Numbered from the stretch's first letter, positions 6,187 to 38,250 are shown. The stretch is DNA of 40,010 bases from Escherichia phage vB_Eco_Titus (OX090892); one strand, 5' to 3'. Numbers and translations: made by a program. Notes: generated by a model not told the origin, from the letters alone.

Positions 6187-6638
6187 AGACTAAATTTAAG
6201 AAACGTCCTGAGACTACCAAGATTGTAGTCCACTGTTCGGCTACCCGTGAGGACAAAGACTTTGGTGTGCGTGACATCCGCCTGTGGCATAAAGCTAAAG
6301 GTTGGCTGGATGTAGGCTACCACTACGTTATCAAGCGTGATGGTACTATCGAAGAAGGTCGTCCTGATGATGTAATCGGTGCAGGTGCAGAGGGTCACAA
6401 CACTGACTCAATCCACATCTGTCTGGTTGGTGGTCTGGACAAGGAGGGCAATACACTCGAAGGCTTCCACAATGCGTTCACTGACGCTCAGGAGGTGTCT
6501 CTGTTCCACCTGATTGCTGCAATGGAGGAGAAGTATCCTACCGTTCGCGTAGTGTGTGGACACCGCGACCTGCCTCGTGTAGCCAAAGCGTGTCCTTGCT
6601 TCGATGTCGTTAAGTGGCTGGAAGAAGTGGTAGTCTAA
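6183..6638 (+). CDS. 3.5: N-acetylmuramoyl-L-alanine amidase / lysozyme (T7 gene 3.5 homologue)
   Basis: 151 aa; VHCSAT...GVR.IR.WH...GWLDVGYH..IKRDGT.E.GR, H.....CPCFD match T7 lysozyme. Confidence 0.95.
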   Translation: MKTKFKKRPETTKIVVHCSATREDKDFGVRDIRLWHKAKGWLDVGYHYVIKRDGTIEEGRPDDVIGAGAEGHNTDSIHICLVGGLDKEGNTLEGFHNAFTDAQEVSLFHLIAAMEEKYPTVRVVCGHRDLPRVAKACPCFDVVKWLEEVVV

Positions 6639-19766: not shown

Positions 19767-19826
19767 ATAACACCCACAACCTGAGGGTCACTATATTTAG
19801 TGGCTCTCTTTTATGGAGGAATTTTA

Positions 19827-31473: not shown

Positions 31474-31679
31474 GTCTTGAACTTAACTTTGGAGATGCTG
31501 TAATCCGCTCTGCCCCTGTTGGTGGGGCGGTTGCAACAGACTTAGTAGCAAGGTTCATGGGTCTAACACTTCACGAGTGGTTCTATGTAGCGGCCATAGG
31601 ATACACTTGCATTCAAGGGTGGGCAGTAATCTATAAGACCCTCAAGAAGTACAAGGAGGATAATGTAAATGACACCTAA
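31470..31679 (+). CDS. 17.5: Holin (T7 gene 17.5 homologue)
   Basis: ATG at 31470 (track start 31461 is GTG); APVGGAVATDLVARFMGLTLHEWFYVAAIGYT matches remembered T7 gp17.5 ..LNEWFYVAAIAYT. Confidence 0.8.
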   Translation: MSLELNFGDAVIRSAPVGGAVATDLVARFMGLTLHEWFYVAAIGYTCIQGWAVIYKTLKKYKEDNVNDT

Positions 31680-31914
31680 AGAGTTTGAGCTATTACTTCA
31701 GGAACTAGACTACGAAGCTGCAAAGCTGATGTTACAAGACCTGAAGAACGACGAGAAGCGTAACCCTCAGTTGTTTAACGCTGTGGTTCGCATGTTGGAA
31801 CGCCACAAGCATACAATTGCAAAGGTTGTTCCTGATGAAAGCATTCTGACCAGTCTTGCGTCTGAACTACCAGACCTGACTGAAGATGAACAATATGGAG
31901 GTATCTTACAATGA
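31669..31914 (+). CDS. 18: Terminase small subunit (T7 gene 18 homologue)
   Basis: 81 aa; position between holin and terminase large subunit; size similar to T7 gp18 (89 aa). Confidence 0.7.
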   Translation: MTPKEFELLLQELDYEAAKLMLQDLKNDEKRNPQLFNAVVRMLERHKHTIAKVVPDESILTSLASELPDLTEDEQYGGILQ

Positions 31915-32124: not shown

Positions 32125-32370
32125 ATGACCGAAAGTGATAACGCTACGCAAAATCTGAGTAGAAGTCCTTATGGATTATGGTCAGAAATTGAAGGATTGC
32201 GTAGTCTGGCAGACACTTTGATAGGTGGAGAGATGCCTATGGAGGTGTACAACGCTCTGACTCCTGAGCAAAAGAAGATTACCCTTAACGTAACCAAGGC
32301 GTGTTCACAATGTGCTACTGCCTTAGAGAAGTTTCAAGAGGAGGTACTAAATGTCGGCTGCCCAAAGTAA
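32125..32370 (+). CDS. Hypothetical soluble protein (81 aa)
   Basis: AAGGAGGT RBS; no TM segment; occupies the T7 gene 18.5 position but does not resemble an i-spanin. Confidence 0.5.
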
Positions 32371-34123
32371 CAAAGACAAACTCATTCTAGCTCGCCTGAA
32401 GGCTGACTTTGTGGCGTTCCTCTTTGTCCTGTGGAAAGCGTTGAACCTTCCTAAGCCTACTCGGTGTCAAATCGACATGGCTAGAAAGCTCGCTGCTGGC
32501 TCTGAGAGACGTTTTATCCTTCAGGCATTTCGTGGTATTGGTAAGTCCTTTATCACCTGTGCGTTCGTTGTATGGAAGCTCTGGAACAATCCTCAGTTGA
32601 AGTTCATGATTGTGTCTGCTTCAAAGGAACGTGCTGACGCTAACTCCATCTTTATCAAGCGTATCATTGACCTGTTACCGTTCTTGCATGAGCTGAAACC
32701 TAAGCCTAACCAACGTGACTCTGTAATCAGCTTTGATGTTGGTCTAGCGAAACCTGACCACTCTCCTTCAGTTAAGTCTGTTGGTATCACTGGTCAGTTG
32801 ACTGGTAGCCGTGCTGACATCCTGATTGCGGACGACGTTGAGGTTCCTAACAACAGTTCCACACAGGCTGCTCGTGACCGCCTAGGTGAGCTTGTAAAGG
32901 AGTTTGACGCTATCTTGAAGCCTGAGGGTACTATCATCTACCTTGGTACTCCACAATGCGAAATGACGCTGTACAGAGAGCTTGAGAACCGTGGTTACAC
33001 TACTACCATCTGGCCTGCTCGTTATCCTAAAGACCGCAAAGACCTTGAGTCGTACGGCACACGCTTAGCTCCTATGCTTCTGGAAGACCTTGAGGAAAAC
33101 CCTGAGGCCATGTGGTGGACACCTACTGACCCTGTACGCTTCGATGATGAAGACCTGCGGGAACGTGAGTTGTCATATGGTAAGGCTGGCTTTGCGTTAC
33201 AGTTCATGTTGAACCCTAACCTGAGTGATGCCGAGAAGTATCCACTCAAGTGTCGTGACTTCATTGTGGCGGCTGTAGGTGATGACTTTGCGCCTTTGAC
33301 CTACCAATGGCTACCTAACCACGAGAACCTAGCTGGGAACGTCCCTGCGGTGGGTTTGAAGGGAGACACATACCACTACTACCACGTAGCAGATAAGCGC
33401 ACTGCGGCCTTCTCAGGCAAGATTCTGGCTATTGACCCTAGTGGTCGTGGTAAGGATGAAACAGGGTATGCTGTCTTGTACTTCCTCAATGGCTACATCT
33501 ATGTGATGGCTATGGGTGGCTTCCGAGGTGGTTACGATGATGAAACCCTTGAGAAGCTAGCTAAGGTTGCCAAGCGATGGAAAGTCAATGAGGTTCTGGT
33601 GGAAGGTAACTTTGGTGACGGTATGTACCTCAAAGTGTTCTCTCCGGTACTGGCTCGTATTCATCCTTGTACGTTGACTGAGACTAAGAGTAAAGGTCAG
33701 AAGGAACAACGTATTGCTGATACCATCGAACCTGTCTTAGGTGCTCACCGTATGGTTATCACTGAGGATGCAATTCGTCACGACTATCAGACTGCTCGTA
33801 ATATTGATGGTCAGCATGACATTAAGTATTGCTGCATGTATCAACTTACACGTCTGACTCGTGAACGCGGCGCATTGGCTCACGATGACCGTCTGGACGC
33901 ATTGGCAATCGGGGTGGCATATTTCCTTGAGTCAATCGAGAAAGACGCTCAGAAAGGCGCTGAGGAGCTTACAGAGGAATGGTTGGAAGACCAACTCAAT
34001 GCTGAACGCATCAGTGACCAACTGAGTGACTACATTGTGCATCAAGGCGATGTGGAAATCCGAGTAGGTTACCAAAATGAGGACGCATATTGGGTCACTA
34101 ACCTAGTTGGGTTTGACCGGTGA
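32351..34123 (+). CDS. 19: Terminase large subunit (T7 gene 19 homologue)
   Basis: 590 aa; Walker A-like region (FRGIGKSF), [10 protein letters not shown], nuclease domain; size matches T7 gp19 (586 aa). Confidence 0.95.
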
Positions 34124-34178
34124 TATGTTAACAAAGATGGTTAAATGTTAACGAATTGAGTAGATTTTTGACCATTTT

Positions 34179-34202
34179 GAATTAACACCCACTATTGGAG
34201 TA
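34179..34202 (+). promoter_or_regulatory. Phage RNAP promoter (GAATTAACACCCACTATTGGAGTA), +1 G at 34197; phiOR equivalent
   Basis: Promoter family; downstream of terminase at the right genome end. Confidence 0.6.
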
Positions 34203-34211
34203 TACGACAAT

Positions 34212-34328
34212 AAGAGGGAACATTAAGTCTATAGACACTAGGAGAGTCGACCTTAGAGTAGGCACTCAGTCTGACCTTAGTGTTCCCTCTTTGTCTTGGG
34301 AGTATTCTTCATTATTAGAATAACTCCC
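34212..34328 (+). other. Two long imperfect inverted repeats downstream of phiOR
   Basis: AAGAGGGAACATTAAG (34212-34227) pairs with CTTAGTGTTCCCTCTT (34276-34291); GGGAGTATTCT (34298-34308) pairs with AGAATAACTCCC (34317-34328) and is followed by T-rich TTCTCTTTGTGT. Confidence 0.35.
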
Positions 34329-34373
34329 TTCTCTTTGTGTAGAGACACTGAGGCGTATCTTGGAGGTGATTGT

Positions 34374-34460
34374 ATGAGGAAGACTACCCTTATGGTCACC
34401 TACTATGTGGTTAAAGTTACCTTCTTGGTTTACCTGTTGGTAACCCATGCTGGCGCTTAA
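34374..34460 (+). CDS. Tiny hydrophobic ORF (28 aa) at the T7 gene 19.5 position
   Basis: GGAGGTG 5 nt upstream of ATG; MRKTTLMVTYYVVKVTFLVYLLVTHAGA; may be non-coding. Confidence 0.15.
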   Translation: MRKTTLMVTYYVVKVTFLVYLLVTHAGA

Positions 34461-34499
34461 TCTCGGTATCCTTATCAGTCTACCTACGATTAAGTGTCT

Positions 34500-34630
34500 A
34501 GTGTCAATACCCTTATGTTAGTGACCTTATGTGTTAACCTTAGGGTAGGTTGGTCTTAGTGTCGCCTACCTTATGTTGTTAACACTATGTTAGTCCATTT
34601 TGTACAACACTAGAAAAATCTGAGTGACCA
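34500..34630 (+). repeat. Array of short CCTTATGT-type repeats on the right-end side of the terminal repeat
   Basis: CCTTATGT at 34511, 34525, 34569 plus degenerate copies; analogous to T7 CCTAAAG-type short repeats flanking the terminal repetition. Confidence 0.5.
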
Positions 34631-34810
34631 TCTCACATATCAAGACCCATTTAATCCCCCCATAGGGGTCAAACCTTATGTCCATCCCTTATGTCATTCC
34701 CTAAGTCTATCATTTTGTCTATCAATAGGTTTTAACTCTCGGTTGAGGTGGGGACAATAGGTGGAGACTATGGGTTTGTATCTCTATGTCTCCCTATCTG
34801 TATAGACCTT
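34631..34810 (+). repeat. Terminal repeat, single collapsed copy (approximate bounds)
   Basis: Starts TCTCACA...CCCCCCATAGGGGTC and contains GTCTCCCTATCTGT, matching remembered T7 terminal repeat landmarks; only one copy in window, consistent with a circularised or concatemer-junction representation. Confidence 0.4.
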
Positions 34811-34945
34811 GTGTCTCCTCTCTATGTCTCTACCCTTATGTCTCCTCTCTATGTTCTATCAACTAGGCAGCATCCTACCTTATGTTAGACCCTAGGTCAA
34901 TAACCTTATGTCATAGACCCTATAAATAGACCTTATCTATATAGA
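34807..34945 (+). repeat. Array of short CCTTATGT-type repeats on the left-end side of the terminal repeat
   Basis: CCTTGTGT 34807, CCTTATGT 34834, 34878, 34904, CCTTATCT 34931. Confidence 0.5.
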
Positions 34946-34948
34946 CCA

Positions 34949-34972
34949 TAATTAACACCCACTATTGAAGAA
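34949..34972 (+). promoter_or_regulatory. Phage RNAP promoter, variant (TAATTAACACCCACTATTGAAGAA), +1 G at 34967; phiOL equivalent
   Basis: Promoter family with A at +2; upstream of the host-type early promoters, as T7 phiOL. Confidence 0.5.
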
Positions 34973-35002
34973 CAACAATCTTAATTATTTTAATATTGAG
35001 TA

Positions 35003-35039
35003 TTGACATTAGAACTTAGTGTCTATAGTATGGCGTCCA
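35003..35039 (+). promoter_or_regulatory. Sigma70 early promoter A1-like (TTGACA -17 bp- TAGTAT)
   Basis: -35 TTGACA 35003-35008, -10 TAGTAT 35026-31, AT-rich UP region; predicted transcript start ATCGAAGGGAAACACGG resembles remembered T7 A1 transcript AUCGAGAGGGACACGG. Confidence 0.7.
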
Positions 35040-35131
35040 TCGAAGGGAAACACGGAAACGGTGCGACTCTGAGATTACAGCGTCAAGCGGTACAAGTAGA
35101 CAGCCTGCTAAGTCATACGAACAACAGGTAC

Positions 35132-35167
35132 TTGACAACAGAAACAAGAAACACTAAGATACACCAC
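35132..35167 (+). promoter_or_regulatory. Sigma70 early promoter A2-like (TTGACA -17 bp- TAAGAT)
   Basis: -35 TTGACA 35132-37, -10 TAAGAT 35155-60; same hexamers as remembered T7 A2. Confidence 0.7.
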
Positions 35168-35202
35168 AACGAAACAACAACAGAAACACCAACAAATAGG
35201 AG

Positions 35203-35239
35203 TTGACAATGTTCAAGTTAAAATGTAAAGTGATGCCAA
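35203..35239 (+). promoter_or_regulatory. Sigma70 early promoter A3-like (TTGACA -17 bp- TAAAGT)
   Basis: -35 TTGACA 35203-08, -10 TAAAGT 35226-31. Confidence 0.6.
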
Positions 35240-35489
35240 TCCACAACAAACAGGGTCACACAGTATGTACACCTGATGGATTTGCGATGAATGCTCGTGT
35301 TGAACGACTGAAGCGTGAACTCAAGATGAATCGTATGCTGAACAACATCTAATAGCTACGATAATCAAGCAACACTGCTGGTCTTGTTGTACTACGCAAC
35401 TGCAAATGTAGTCGGGACGATGAAACTGCTATCCCTAAAGTTCTTTAACAATCTGGTATAAAGCGCATGTGTTGAGTTAGAAAGTGATT

Positions 35490-35525
35490 GACTCAAGGCT
35501 GCTGAATGTAGTAGCCTTTATGACA
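35490..35525 (+). ncRNA. RNase III processing-site hairpin (R0.3-like) ahead of RNAP gene
   Basis: GACTCAAGGCTGCTGAATGTAGTAGCCTTTATGA; preceded by TTCTTTAACAATCTGGTA, conserved with remembered T7 sequence upstream of R0.3. Confidence 0.5.
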
Positions 35526-35565
35526 AGCATTTAATTTCAGCCACTATAAGATGGAGACAACAACA

Positions 35566-38250
35566 ATGATTAACTTTGATAACATTCAGCGTAATGACTT
35601 CTCTGATGTGAAGAACGCCATTATGCCATTCAACGTACTGGCTGATGCTTACGGTGAATATCTGGCAGGTGAACAACTGCGCTTAGAGCATGAGTCCTAC
35701 CAGATGGGCGAGGAACGTTTCATCAAGGCGTTCGAGTCTGCCTGTAAGCGCGGTGAACTCGGTGATTCTCTGGTGGCTCGCCCGTTACTGGAAACCTTGG
35801 TTCCTGCACTGAGTGAAGCAACTAAAGCATTCTTAGCTCAAGGTGGTCGTGGTCGTCCGCATGTGTCTAAGCAATACCTGAGCCGTATTGACACCGACCT
35901 TGCTGCCTTTATCACCATCAAAGTTGTGCTGATGTCCTTGGGTTCTCCTGCGACAGGCAAAGTAAACAACCACGGTGCTGTAACTGGTGCTAACATGCAG
36001 TCAGTCTGTATGTCTATCTCCAAGGCTATCGAGGAGGAGTGCCGCTTCGGTCGCATTCGTGAAGAAGAAGCACAGCATTTCAAGAATCGCGTTAAACCAT
36101 CGCTGGATAAGCGCCAAGGTCTGCTGTACAAGCGTGAGTACATGAAGGCTGTTGAAGCTGGCATGATTGCTAAAGGCGAGTTGGATAGTCACTTTGAGGA
36201 GTGGCCGCGCGATGAAGCATACCATGTTGGTGTCAAGATGTTGGAGCTGCTGATTGAATCAACTGGTCTGTGCGAGATTGTACGCAAGAACGCTGGTAAT
36301 CCTAAGTTAGACCGCTACGAAGTGGAACTGACCGAAGAATACGCTGACAAGCTGACCTCTCGTGTGTCTGCCTTGGCTGGTATCTCACCTGTTAAGCAAC
36401 CTTGTGTAGTACCACCTAAGCCTTGGACTGGTATCATCGGCGGTGGCTATTGGGCAAAAGGTCGCAAGCCTTTGCGTCTGATTCGTACCGGAACTAAACG
36501 CGCTCTGATGCGCTACAACGATGTGGATATGCCAGATGTGTACAAAGCTATCAACATCATTCAGAACACCGCTTGGAAGGTCAATGCGGACGTGCTGAAG
36601 GTAGCTAACGAGATTGTCTACTGGAAGCATTGCCCTGTTGAAGACATCCCACAACTGGACAAGCTGGATAAACCTGTACGTCCTGAAGGTATTGATGAAG
36701 ATGAAGCCCTGCTGAAGAAGTGGAAGAAGAACGCTGCGACCATCTACCGCAAGGAGAAAGCCCGTCAGTCTCGCCGCTTGTCTCTTGACTTCATGATGGC
36801 ACAAGCTAACAAGTTCGCTCAGTACGATGCCATTTGGTTCCCGTACACAATGGACTGGCGCGGTCGTGTATATGCTGAGCCAATGTTTAACCCACAAGGT
36901 AACGACCTGACCAAAGGTCTGTTAACTTTCGCTAACGGCTGTGAGCTGGGTTCTGAAGGTGCTTACTGGCTGGCGGTGCATGGCTCCAACTGTGCGGGTG
37001 TCGATAAAGTATCACTGGACGACCGCGTTAAGTGGGTGTACGAGAACGAAGAAAACATCTTGGCATCCGCTGAGAACCCATTAGACTGCACTTGGTGGGC
37101 GGAACAAGACTCCCCATTCTGCTTCTTAGCATTCTGCTTCGAGTGGGCAGGGTACGTTAAGTCTGGCCGTAGTGAAGGCTATGTGTCTCACCTGCCACTG
37201 GCATTCGATGGTACTTGCTCCGGTCTGCAACACTTCTCTGCAATGCTGCGTGATGAAGTTGGTGGTGCTGCTGTTAACCTGCTGCCTGCTGACAAACCAC
37301 AAGACATCTACGGTATTGTTGCCCAGAAAGTAAACGTCCTGTTGGAGCGTGACCTGTTGAACGGCACCGAGGACAGCACCAAGATTGTTGTCGATAAGAA
37401 GACAGGTGAACAGATTGAGAAGTTTGTTCTGGGTACACGTAACGCTGCTAAACAATGGCTGCAACACGGTGTAAACCGTAGCGTAACCAAGCGTTCTGTG
37501 ATGACTCTGGCATACGGTTCCAAGAAGTACGGCTTTGCCGAGCAAATCATGGAGGATACTTTACGTCCTGCCATTGATAAAGGCGAAGGTAATCAGTTCA
37601 CTGCACCTAACCAAGCTGCAATGTATCTGGCTGGTCTTATCTGGGACTGTGTATCAACTACCGTAATCGCTGCGGTACAAGCTATGGAATGGTTGCAGAA
37701 GTCCGCTGCTCTGATTAGTTCAGAAGTGCGAGACAAGAAGACCAAGGAGCTGTTAAAGCCTGCTCTGCCTATTCACTGGACTACTCCTAACGGGTTCCCT
37801 GTTTGGTCAGAGTACATGATTCAGGAGGAGAAGCGCATTGAAGCGACTCTGTTTGGTGAACTGCGTATCCGCAACACTATCAAGCTGCGTGATACCGCCA
37901 AGATTGACGCTCAAGCTCAGGCTTCTGGTATTGCACCTAACTTCATCCATAGCAACGATGCGTCTCACCTGCAAATGACCGCTGTGTACTGCCACGATGT
38001 GTACGGGATTGTTGACTTTGCATTCATCCACGACTCATTCGGTTGTCACGCTGGTAAAGCTCACCTGCTGTTCAAAGGTGTGCGTGAGACAATGGTTAAG
38101 ACTTACAGTGAACACGATGTAATCGCTGAGTTCTATGAGCAATTCGCTGAGCAACTGCACGAGTCCCAACTGGACAAGATGCCAGCTCTTCCTGAGAAGG
38201 GTAACTTAGACCTGAACGAAATCCTGAAGTCACTGTACACTTTCAGTTAA
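35566..38250 (+). CDS. 1: DNA-directed RNA polymerase, single-subunit (T7 gene 1 homologue)
   Basis: 894 aa from ATG 35566 (GGAGA 8 nt upstream; in-frame ATG at 35551 lacks an RBS); very high similarity to T7 RNAP throughout (PFN.LAD.YGE, QPCVVPPKPWTGI.GGGYWA, RKSRR.SL.FM..QANKFA, WAEQDSPFCFLAFCFE, VTKRSVMTLAYGSK, HDSFG, QLHESQLDKMPALP). Confidence 0.97.
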   Translation: MINFDNIQRNDFSDVKNAIMPFNVLADAYGEYLAGEQLRLEHESYQMGEERFIKAFESACKRGELGDSLVARPLLETLVPALSEATKAFLAQGGRGRPHVSKQYLSRIDTDLAAFITIKVVLMSLGSPATGKVNNHGAVTGANMQSVCMSISKAIEEECRFGRIREEEAQHFKNRVKPSLDKRQGLLYKREYMKAVEAGMIAKGELDSHFEEWPRDEAYHVGVKMLELLIESTGLCEIVRKNAGNPKLDRYEVELTEEYADKLTSRVSALAGISPVKQPCVVPPKPWTGIIGGGYWAKGRKPLRLIRTGTKRALMRYNDVDMPDVYKAINIIQNTAWKVNADVLKVANEIVYWKHCPVEDIPQLDKLDKPVRPEGIDEDEALLKKWKKNAATIYRKEKARQSRRLSLDFMMAQANKFAQYDAIWFPYTMDWRGRVYAEPMFNPQGNDLTKGLLTFANGCELGSEGAYWLAVHGSNCAGVDKVSLDDRVKWVYENEENILASAENPLDCTWWAEQDSPFCFLAFCFEWAGYVKSGRSEGYVSHLPLAFDGTCSGLQHFSAMLRDEVGGAAVNLLPADKPQDIYGIVAQKVNVLLERDLLNGTEDSTKIVVDKKTGEQIEKFVLGTRNAAKQWLQHGVNRSVTKRSVMTLAYGSKKYGFAEQIMEDTLRPAIDKGEGNQFTAPNQAAMYLAGLIWDCVSTTVIAAVQAMEWLQKSAALISSEVRDKKTKELLKPALPIHWTTPNGFPVWSEYMIQEEKRIEATLFGELRIRNTIKLRDTAKIDAQAQASGIAPNFIHSNDASHLQMTAVYCHDVYGIVDFAFIHDSFGCHAGKAHLLFKGVRETMVKTYSEHDVIAEFYEQFAEQLHESQLDKMPALPEKGNLDLNEILKSLYTFS

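Follow-up and report, generated by a model that had tools for sequence, protein, structure and literature searches.

The segment at 34124-34972 is very probably the concatemer junction of a T7-like phage (Studiervirinae; vB_Eco_Mak/Bam lineage), in which the terminal repeat at 34631-34795 has been collapsed to a single copy. We refer to the whole stretch of DNA analyzed, 40,010 bp in length, as the window, and all coordinates are counted from its first base. The segment is non-coding and separates the large terminase gene from the early region; the elements in and around it run in the order gene 19, phiOR, structured leader, small ORF, short-repeat array, conserved box, repeat, ATCTGTA, short-repeat array, phiOL, and host promoters. 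The initial annotation had placed the physical genome ends in this region; alignment and comparison support that placement, with both boundary boxes conserved in the relatives. The junction appears to be an ordinary, textbook T7-type genome end in a little-studied lineage.

Genome, relatives, and public records

A megablast search of the window against a phage collection matched only two genomes, those of Escherichia phage vB_Eco_Mak (OX001577.1) and vB_Eco_Bam, both of which are classed as unclassified Studiervirinae. Over the 34124-34972 region and the terminase gene, Mak is 100% identical to the window in the stretches compared, and Bam is 99.8 to 100% identical. A literature search for the two phages returned no dedicated description and a sole mention, in the paper on Aeromonas phage JELG-KS1, where they are among the nearest relatives of that phage at ~32% intergenomic similarity (PMC10974468).

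The Mak record, OX001577.1, is 40,137 bp long. An exact 127-bp overlap joins its two ends, and without this overlap the record comes to 40,010 bp, the length of the window. An overlap of this kind has the form that an assembler would leave on a circular contig; the window is thus a complete, circularly permuted genome opened at an arbitrary point, and the ends of the record do not correspond to physical ends. The public Mak and Bam records are arbitrary linearizations that carry the 127-bp assembler overlap and leave the terminal repeat unannotated. We also considered the 127-bp overlap itself as a terminal repeat and rejected it: it maps to window positions 35360-35486, ~565 bp to the right of the junction feature, and has the form of an assembly overlap.

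All genes of this genome are on the + strand. Three of them bear on the nature of the junction:

31669-31914, + strand: small terminase (PHROG profile search)
32351-34123, + strand: large terminase, homologue of T7 gene 19; 590-aa ORF matching PHROG 38, terminase large subunit (E = 1e-130)
35551-38250, + strand: T7-type RNA polymerase (PHROG profile search)

The large terminase gene is labeled DNA packaging protein B in OX001577.1, and the junction region begins directly downstream of it. The region thus lies where a T7-type end would, with gene 19 on one side and the early host promoters on the other, and the genome encodes a T7-type RNA polymerase and gp18/gp19-type terminases. The promoters predicted on its two sides are as follows:

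34180-34200, + strand: phiOR, phage-RNA-polymerase promoter AATTAACACCCACTATTGGAG, in the same place as T7 phiOR, after gene 19
34950-34970, + strand: phiOL, phage promoter AATTAACACCCACTATTGAAG, in the same place as T7 phiOL
35003-35031, 35132-35160, and 35203-35231, + strand: three host sigma-70-type promoters, analogues of T7 A1-A3, at the start of the early region

The phage promoter consensus AATTAACACCCACTATTGGAG is present in 16 copies, 16/16 of them on the + strand. Transcription is predicted to start at G34197 from phiOR (by alignment with the T7 promoter) and at G34967 from phiOL. That these two predicted promoters bracket the repeat, phiOR on the left and phiOL on the right, had been proposed in the initial annotation and is confirmed by their fit to the phage's own promoter consensus. 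Each host-type promoter consists of TTGACA, a 17-nt spacer, and a -10 hexamer, with matches at 10/12 positions, and the one at 35003-35031 resembles T7 A1 in sequence.

Boundaries of the terminal repeat

The repeat and the two elements that adjoin it are placed as follows:

34614-34630, + strand: conserved box AAAAATCTGAGTGACCA, directly left of the repeat; present in T7, Yanou, JELG-KS1, VP4, N4, and 24 IMG/VR contigs
34631-34795, + strand: predicted direct terminal repeat, 165 bp, placed by alignments to the T7 junction and four other lineages; single copy in the window
34796-34802, + strand: ATCTGTA, the first bases after the repeat, putative counterpart of the T7 class II pause signal ATCTGTT

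For comparison, the T7 concatemer junction was assembled from V01146 and aligned against 34124-34990. Most of the region is unalignable, and three blocks align: AAAAATCTGAGTGAC(C/T)A^TCTCACA (here and below, a caret marks the repeat edge), a C-run and palindrome ~25 nt into the repeat, and GTCTCT.TGT.TCCCT^ATCTGT. In the window, the C-run and palindrome CCCCCCATAGGGG lie within the repeat at 34656-34668. The TCTCACA at 34631 had been noted as paralleling the start of the T7 repeat, and the likeness holds on alignment to the T7 ends, where the box is conserved. Also as first noted, the repeat segment occurs once: a blastn search of 34631-34795 against the whole window returned only the self-match, the remaining matches being 11 to 18 nt long. 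The repeat is present once because the assembly was circularized.

The left edge is AAAAATCTGAGTGACCA^TCTCACA at 34631. Among T7, Yanou, JELG-KS1, VP4, N4, and the 24 IMG/VR contigs, the AAAAATCTGAGTGACCA box is invariant save at two positions. At the edge itself, AAAAATCTGAGTGAC(C/T)A^TCTCA is invariant in T7, Yanou, JELG-KS1, VP4/N4, and the window, and a longer left box, AAAAATCTGAG(T/A)GAC(C/T)A^TCTCA, is common to T7, Yanou, JELG-KS1, VP4/N4, and the 24 IMG/VR contigs. In the window, ...AAATCTGAG(T/A)GAC(C/T)A followed by a repeat that starts with TCTCA is found at 34614-34635. This conservation suggests that cleavage or recognition at the AAAAATCTGAGTGACCA box determines the mature left end.

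The right edge is TCTCCCT^ATCTGTA at 34795/34796. Here, the repeat stops directly before ATCTGT(T/A), and its length of 165 bp lies within the 144 to 248 bp found among the relatives. Both boundary boxes are invariant in a five-way alignment. Many of the 24 IMG/VR contigs that carry the left box end 144 to 223 nt after TCTCA in ...GTCCCT or ...GTCTCT, and all of the permuted IMG/VR contigs that contain ATCTGT (8/8) have TCCCT^ATCTGT(T/A) at +144 to +248. When IMG/VR was scanned for exact matches to a piece of the repeat specific to this phage, CCATAGGGGTCAAACCTTATGT, there were none.

When the boundaries are transferred from the relatives, the repeat becomes 34631-34795, with a length of 165 bp rather than the ~170 to 180 bp first estimated, and the virion genome becomes 40,175 bp. 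By analogy with T7, the virion DNA is predicted to be linear, to start with TCTCACATATC... and end with ...TATGTCTCCCT (the start and finish of the repeat), and to carry the repeat at both ends. That the repeat is duplicated, and where exactly the termini fall, are predictions made from homology only.

Could the genome end here with a repeat whose boundaries differ from 34631-34795, either longer (170 to 180 bp, reaching into the right array) or shifted by a few bases? Repeat length among the relatives does vary from 144 to 248 bp, the right array starts only 12 nt past the proposed edge, and the edges given here come from homology. However, the relatives with determined or record-defined ends all start exactly with TCTCA and stop exactly before ATCTGT, and this region of the window has only one + strand ATCTGT; we therefore consider other boundaries very unlikely. 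We consider it extremely unlikely that the junction-like sequence is a conserved relic or a transcription-control region in a phage that packages by a headful/circular permutation mechanism or through cohesive ends and has no fixed repeat. Such a reading would accord with public records that are arbitrary linearizations with an assembler overlap, and with ends known here from sequence alone, but it would have to accommodate T7-type small and large terminases and two cleavage-site boxes that are perfectly conserved with phages of experimentally fixed ends. Moreover, we know of no Studiervirinae phage that packages by headful. We thus retain a fixed 165-bp repeat with edges at 34631 and 34795.

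The ATCTGTA motif directly after the repeat was missed in the initial annotation and is added here. The class II pause signal at the T7 concatemer junction is a seven-base motif of the non-template strand, ATCTGTT, with A, C, or T in front of it, and its seventh-base T is reported to be strictly conserved for T7 RNA polymerase (bioRxiv 10.64898/2026.02.12.705533). The motif of the window, T-ATCTGTA, matches this signal at 6/7 bases, with a permitted preceding T and with A as the seventh base. The seventh-base A variant is also found in JELG-KS1, VP4, N4, and one IMG/VR contig, and ATCTGT(T/A) stands directly after the repeat in T7, Yanou, JELG-KS1, VP4/N4, and 8 permuted IMG/VR contigs. Genome-wide, ATCTGTA occurs once on the + strand, at 34796, and ATCTGTT is absent from the + strand and has 6 copies on the - strand.

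ATCTGT is depleted on one strand. The window has 2 copies on the + strand versus 17.7 expected from dinucleotide content and 10 on the - strand versus 11.5 expected. The corresponding counts are 2 versus 12.2 (+) and 12 versus 12.2 (-) in Yanou, and 5 versus 21 (+) and 8 versus 12.8 (-) in VP4. Under a fourth-order Markov model, the + strand depletion in the window is weaker (2 versus 8.8; z = -2.8). This + strand avoidance is consistent with a signal read by the phage polymerase, which would pause there.

Short repeats, hairpins, and a small ORF around the repeat

The remaining features of the junction are as follows:

34206-34295, + strand: long imperfect inverted repeat 1 (core arms 34212-34227/34276-34291)
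34298-34328, + strand: inverted repeat 2, hairpin GGGAGTATTCT...AGAATAACTCCC, with a T-rich tail TTCTCTTTGTG at 34329-34339
34374-34460, + strand: putative small ORF, 28 hydrophobic residues (MRKTTLMVTYYVVKVTFLVYLLVTHAGA), with a ribosome-binding site GGAGGTGA ahead; positional analogue of T7 gene 19.5
34388-34576, + strand: left array, CCTTATGT-type octamers at 34388, 34470, 34511, 34525, 34538, and 34569; analogue of the T7 right-end-side array
34426-34447, no strand assigned: short hairpin TGGTTTACC-tgtt-GGTAACCCA, centered 194.5 bp left of the repeat
34807-34938, + strand: right array, octamers at 34807, 34820, 34834, 34847, 34878, 34890, 34904, and 34931; analogue of the T7 left-end-side array

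Exact matches to CCTTATGT number 12 in the window versus 1.33 expected, and 0/100 shuffles reached 12. On the + strand, eight exact copies fall within 400 bp (34511-34911) and one lies elsewhere. With one mismatch allowed, 34380-34950 holds 11 copies on the + strand and 0 on the - strand. The initial annotation had counted at least nine octamers flanking the repeat; the count is sustained, but the description as flanking is not, as octamers also lie within the repeat at 34674, 34687, and 34699, the first two being exact copies of CCTTATGT. Spacing is 13 to 14 nt within the clusters of the left array, and the right array has a phase of 12 to 14 nt; Tandem Repeats Finder reports periods of 13 and 26 to 28 nt.

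One-strand arrays phased at 12 to 14 nt are thus found within the repeat and to its left and right, as at a T7-type junction. The same phase and three-part distribution are seen for the CCTAAAG units of T7, the CATCAAG units of N4, and the CATTAGG-like units of JELG-KS1, and the analogy to the T7 CCTAAAG repeats drawn at the outset is upheld in phase, strand, and distribution. Across Studiervirinae, the phase of ~13 nt and the single-strand orientation are conserved and the unit is lineage specific: CCTTATGT here, CCTAAAG in T7, CATCAAG in Chatterjeevirus, and CATTAGG in JELG-KS1. By analogy, the phased CCTTATGT arrays would be accessory cis elements equivalent to the CCTAAAG arrays of T7. To our knowledge, the function of the short repeats in T7 has not been established. 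As a tentative suggestion with a low chance of being right, the arrays could be binding sites for a co-evolving phage protein, e.g., the small terminase gp18, that set packaging specificity between related phages; likewise, the polymerases of the Mak/JELG/Chatterjeevirus clade could have altered class II specificity, reflected in the ATCTGTA variant.

The short hairpin at 34426-34447, also absent from the initial annotation, forms 8/9 pairs; the 330 bp left of the repeat contain no other inverted repeat with 7 pairs or more. T7 and Yanou likewise have a single upstream inverted repeat of this kind, centered at -190. The 40-kb window contains 12 hairpins as good as this one, so that one would fall by chance within 5 nt of a chosen position with a probability of ~0.003. 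A strict search for a hairpin at exactly -190 found none in JELG-KS1, VP4, and N4; relaxed settings found larger inverted repeats at -179 (JELG-KS1) and -160.5 (VP4/N4). The position of the hairpin therefore appears only roughly conserved, from -160 to -195 among the relatives. Chung, Nardone, and Hinkle reportedly described in 1990 a hairpin intermediate in the processing of T7 concatemers, placed ~190 bp to the left of the repeat; we regard the hairpin at 34426-34447 as a candidate counterpart of the T7 inverted repeat at -190.

Two long imperfect inverted repeats after phiOR, first noted at 34212-34291 and 34298-34328, are borne out by their arms and by their folding z-scores. Inverted repeat 1 has 16-nt arms that are 94% complementary and forms a stem of ~22 pairs around a branched loop. 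It begins 10 nt into the predicted phiOR transcript (start G34197) and folds as RNA at -36.3 kcal/mol (z = -3.25); the values for inverted repeat 2 are -18.1 kcal/mol and z = -3.85. An Rfam scan of 33900-35700 at E ≤ 1 matched no family, so described RNA families do not explain these hairpins. The phiOR leaders of T7 and JELG-KS1 fold into comparable long imperfect hairpins with unrelated sequences. Because the inverted repeats lie at the 5' end of the phiOR transcript and the T7 and JELG-KS1 leaders fold alike, an RNA-level role is the likelier one; most likely, the two repeats are 5'-leader RNA structures of the phiOR transcript, with stabilization or processing as a candidate role. For covariation in the leader hairpins, the available genomes are near-identical only.

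The same inverted repeats had been proposed as packaging signals. At the DNA level, they might act in packaging or replication, as cruciforms, as terminase-binding sites, or as part of a phiOR-linked origin. In T7, a secondary origin is associated with phiOR. The DNA fold of 34205-34335 has a z-score of -5.0, and the inverted repeats lie between phiOR and the terminal repeat, where the PacB signals of T3/T7 are said to lie (PMC9860248). We nevertheless judge a DNA-level role unlikely: unlike the boundary boxes, the inverted-repeat sequences are unconserved in relatives, and it is the smaller hairpin at 34426-34447 that matches the position of T7's only upstream inverted repeat. The start of the repeats 10 nt into the phiOR transcript and the similar folds of the T7 and JELG-KS1 leaders, unrelated in sequence, fit a role as RNA, and we also count the Rfam result against a DNA signal. 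The packaging proposal thus gains no support, and we favor leader structures in the phiOR RNA. The further proposal that the inverted repeats are terminators stands in part, for inverted repeat 2. This hairpin has a T-rich tail and resembles in form the annotated terminator at 19783-19814, and it may possibly be a weak hairpin-type terminator or attenuator; however, a simple consensus terminator scan did not call it.

The putative small ORF ends in frame with a longer ORF at 34296-34460. Its 28-aa product matches no PHROG and does not evidently resemble T7 gp19.5, the JELG-KS1 ORF52 product, or the product of the VP4 small ORF. A small hydrophobic ORF is found at the same position in T7, JELG-KS1, and VP4.

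Concatemer processing and comparison with known systems

The T7 model suggests how these elements could act together. Replication and recombination through the repeat would join genomes head to tail into concatemers in which each junction holds one repeat. The phage RNA polymerase, moving rightward from phiOR or from upstream late promoters, would pause at ATCTGTA just past the repeat. The gp18/gp19 terminase and the prohead would then act at the junction, with cuts at AAAAATCTGAGTGACCA^TCTCA and TCCCT^ATCTGT; gp18 recognizes PacB and gp19 cuts at PacC (summarized in PMC9860248). DNA synthesis would duplicate the repeat, possibly via a hairpin intermediate at the small inverted repeat ~190 bp to its left, to give two copies per packaged genome.

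The value of these results lies chiefly in annotation: for the Mak and Bam records, they predict that the genome ends at 34631 and 34795, that the repeat spans 165 bp, and that the virion DNA measures 40,175 bp. They also indicate that, even in divergent T7-like genomes, sequence suffices to locate the ends, by means of two short boundary boxes and the pause motif. The avoidance of ATCTGT on one strand and the conserved 13-nt phasing of unrelated repeat units bear on T7-type concatemer processing and leave the known picture unchanged.

The T7 junction has the same order of elements from gene 19 to the host promoters A1-A3. T7 and the window share a near-identical left box, AAAAATCTGAGTGAC(C/T)A^TCTCACA; ~25 nt inside the repeat, a C-run and a CCCCCATAGGGG palindrome; TCCCT^ATCTGT at the right edge; one-strand short repeats phased at 13 nt inside and flanking the repeat; and a small inverted repeat ~190 bp to the left. 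They differ in the length of the repeat (165 bp in the window versus 160 bp in T7), in the short-repeat unit (CCTTATGT versus CCTAAAG), and in the pause motif (ATCTGTA versus ATCTGTT), and the repeat interior and phiOR leader are unalignable between them. Unlike T7, the window has only a 28-codon ORF at the position of gene 19.5, and its early region is far shorter than that of T7, with one 47-aa ORF ahead of the polymerase gene.

Cedecea phage Yanou, with an annotated repeat of 159 bp, has both boundary boxes in common with the window. Aeromonas phage JELG-KS1 has a repeat of 185 bp, with ends determined by PhageTerm and validated by Sanger sequencing (PMC10974468); run-off Sanger sequencing has likewise been applied to the Citrobacter SH phages (PMC4925675). 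Its left box, AGAAAAATCTGAGTGACCA^TCTCA, is identical to that of the window, and ATCTGTAT stands directly after the repeat in both; it differs from the window in the length of its repeat, its CATTAGG-like unit, and its longer (12-pair) upstream inverted repeat at -179. Closest by terminase sequence, at 77% nucleotide identity, are the Vibrio phages VP4/N4 (Chatterjeevirus). Their repeat is 173 to 176 bp long, their unit is CATCAAG with a 12-nt phase, and their inverted repeat is at -160.5, in all of which they differ from the window; their left box is CAGAAAAATCTGAGAGACCA^TCTCA, and the last ~40 nt of their repeat is similar to that of the window (ATAGGTGGAGACTAT.GGT...TCTCT). The VP4/N4 records start at ATCTGTAT, directly after a single repeat copy, and end with one copy.

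Strand bias of the pause-like core

ATCTGT, the core of the pause-like motif directly right of the terminal repeat, is strongly under-represented on the + (coding) strand of the whole window, with 2 observed occurrences versus 17.7 expected; the single + strand copy besides that in the junction lies at 6417. On the - strand, the count (10 observed versus 11.5 expected) indicates no avoidance. Cedecea phage Yanou and Vibrio phage VP4 show the same strand asymmetry.

Junction and record ends in near-identical phages

Within the terminal repeat, a run of cytosines (34656-34661) is C6 in the window and in phage Mak (vB_Eco_Mak, OX001577.1) versus C7 in phage Bam (vB_Eco_Bam), the sole difference from Bam across the junction. 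This could be a homopolymer sequencing error, genuine variation between strains, or a mismatch between the two repeat copies that the collapsed assembly masks; in relatives, the run ranges from C5 to C11.

The junction also contains a putative hydrophobic 28-codon ORF (34374-34460) with a strong ribosome-binding site, at the position of gene 19.5 in T7. It is absent from the Mak annotation, which gives an opposite-strand 60-amino-acid ORF (34266-34448) instead. Several short ORFs are annotated across the non-coding junction in Bam and are probably spurious.

In OX001577.1, positions 1-127 are exactly duplicated at 40011-40137. The segment maps to window positions 35360-35486, within the early region, and the physical genome ends are not located there. 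Because this duplication looks like an overlap that an assembler left on a circular contig, the Mak record length (40,137 bp) differs both from the unique length (40,010) and from the length predicted for virion DNA (40,175).

Early region and RNase III-like site

The early region (34972-35551) is very short. Rightward from the phage promoter phiOL, the following features precede the RNA polymerase gene (gene 1):

35003, 35132 and 35203: three strong host-type promoters (predicted)
35209-35352: one 47-amino-acid ORF, PHROG 8393 (family of unknown function)

Neither the anti-restriction gene 0.3 nor the kinase gene 0.7 has a counterpart in the interval that separates the genome end from gene 1 (34972-35551).

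Upstream of the RNA polymerase gene, no Rfam family covers 35441-35523. In sequence, this candidate RNase III site is clearly akin to the T7 R0.3 RNase III site: TCTTTAACAATCTGGTA, ACTCAAGG, and CCTTTATGA are kept, and the distal hairpin is unlike that of R0.3 in sequence but retains its pairing.
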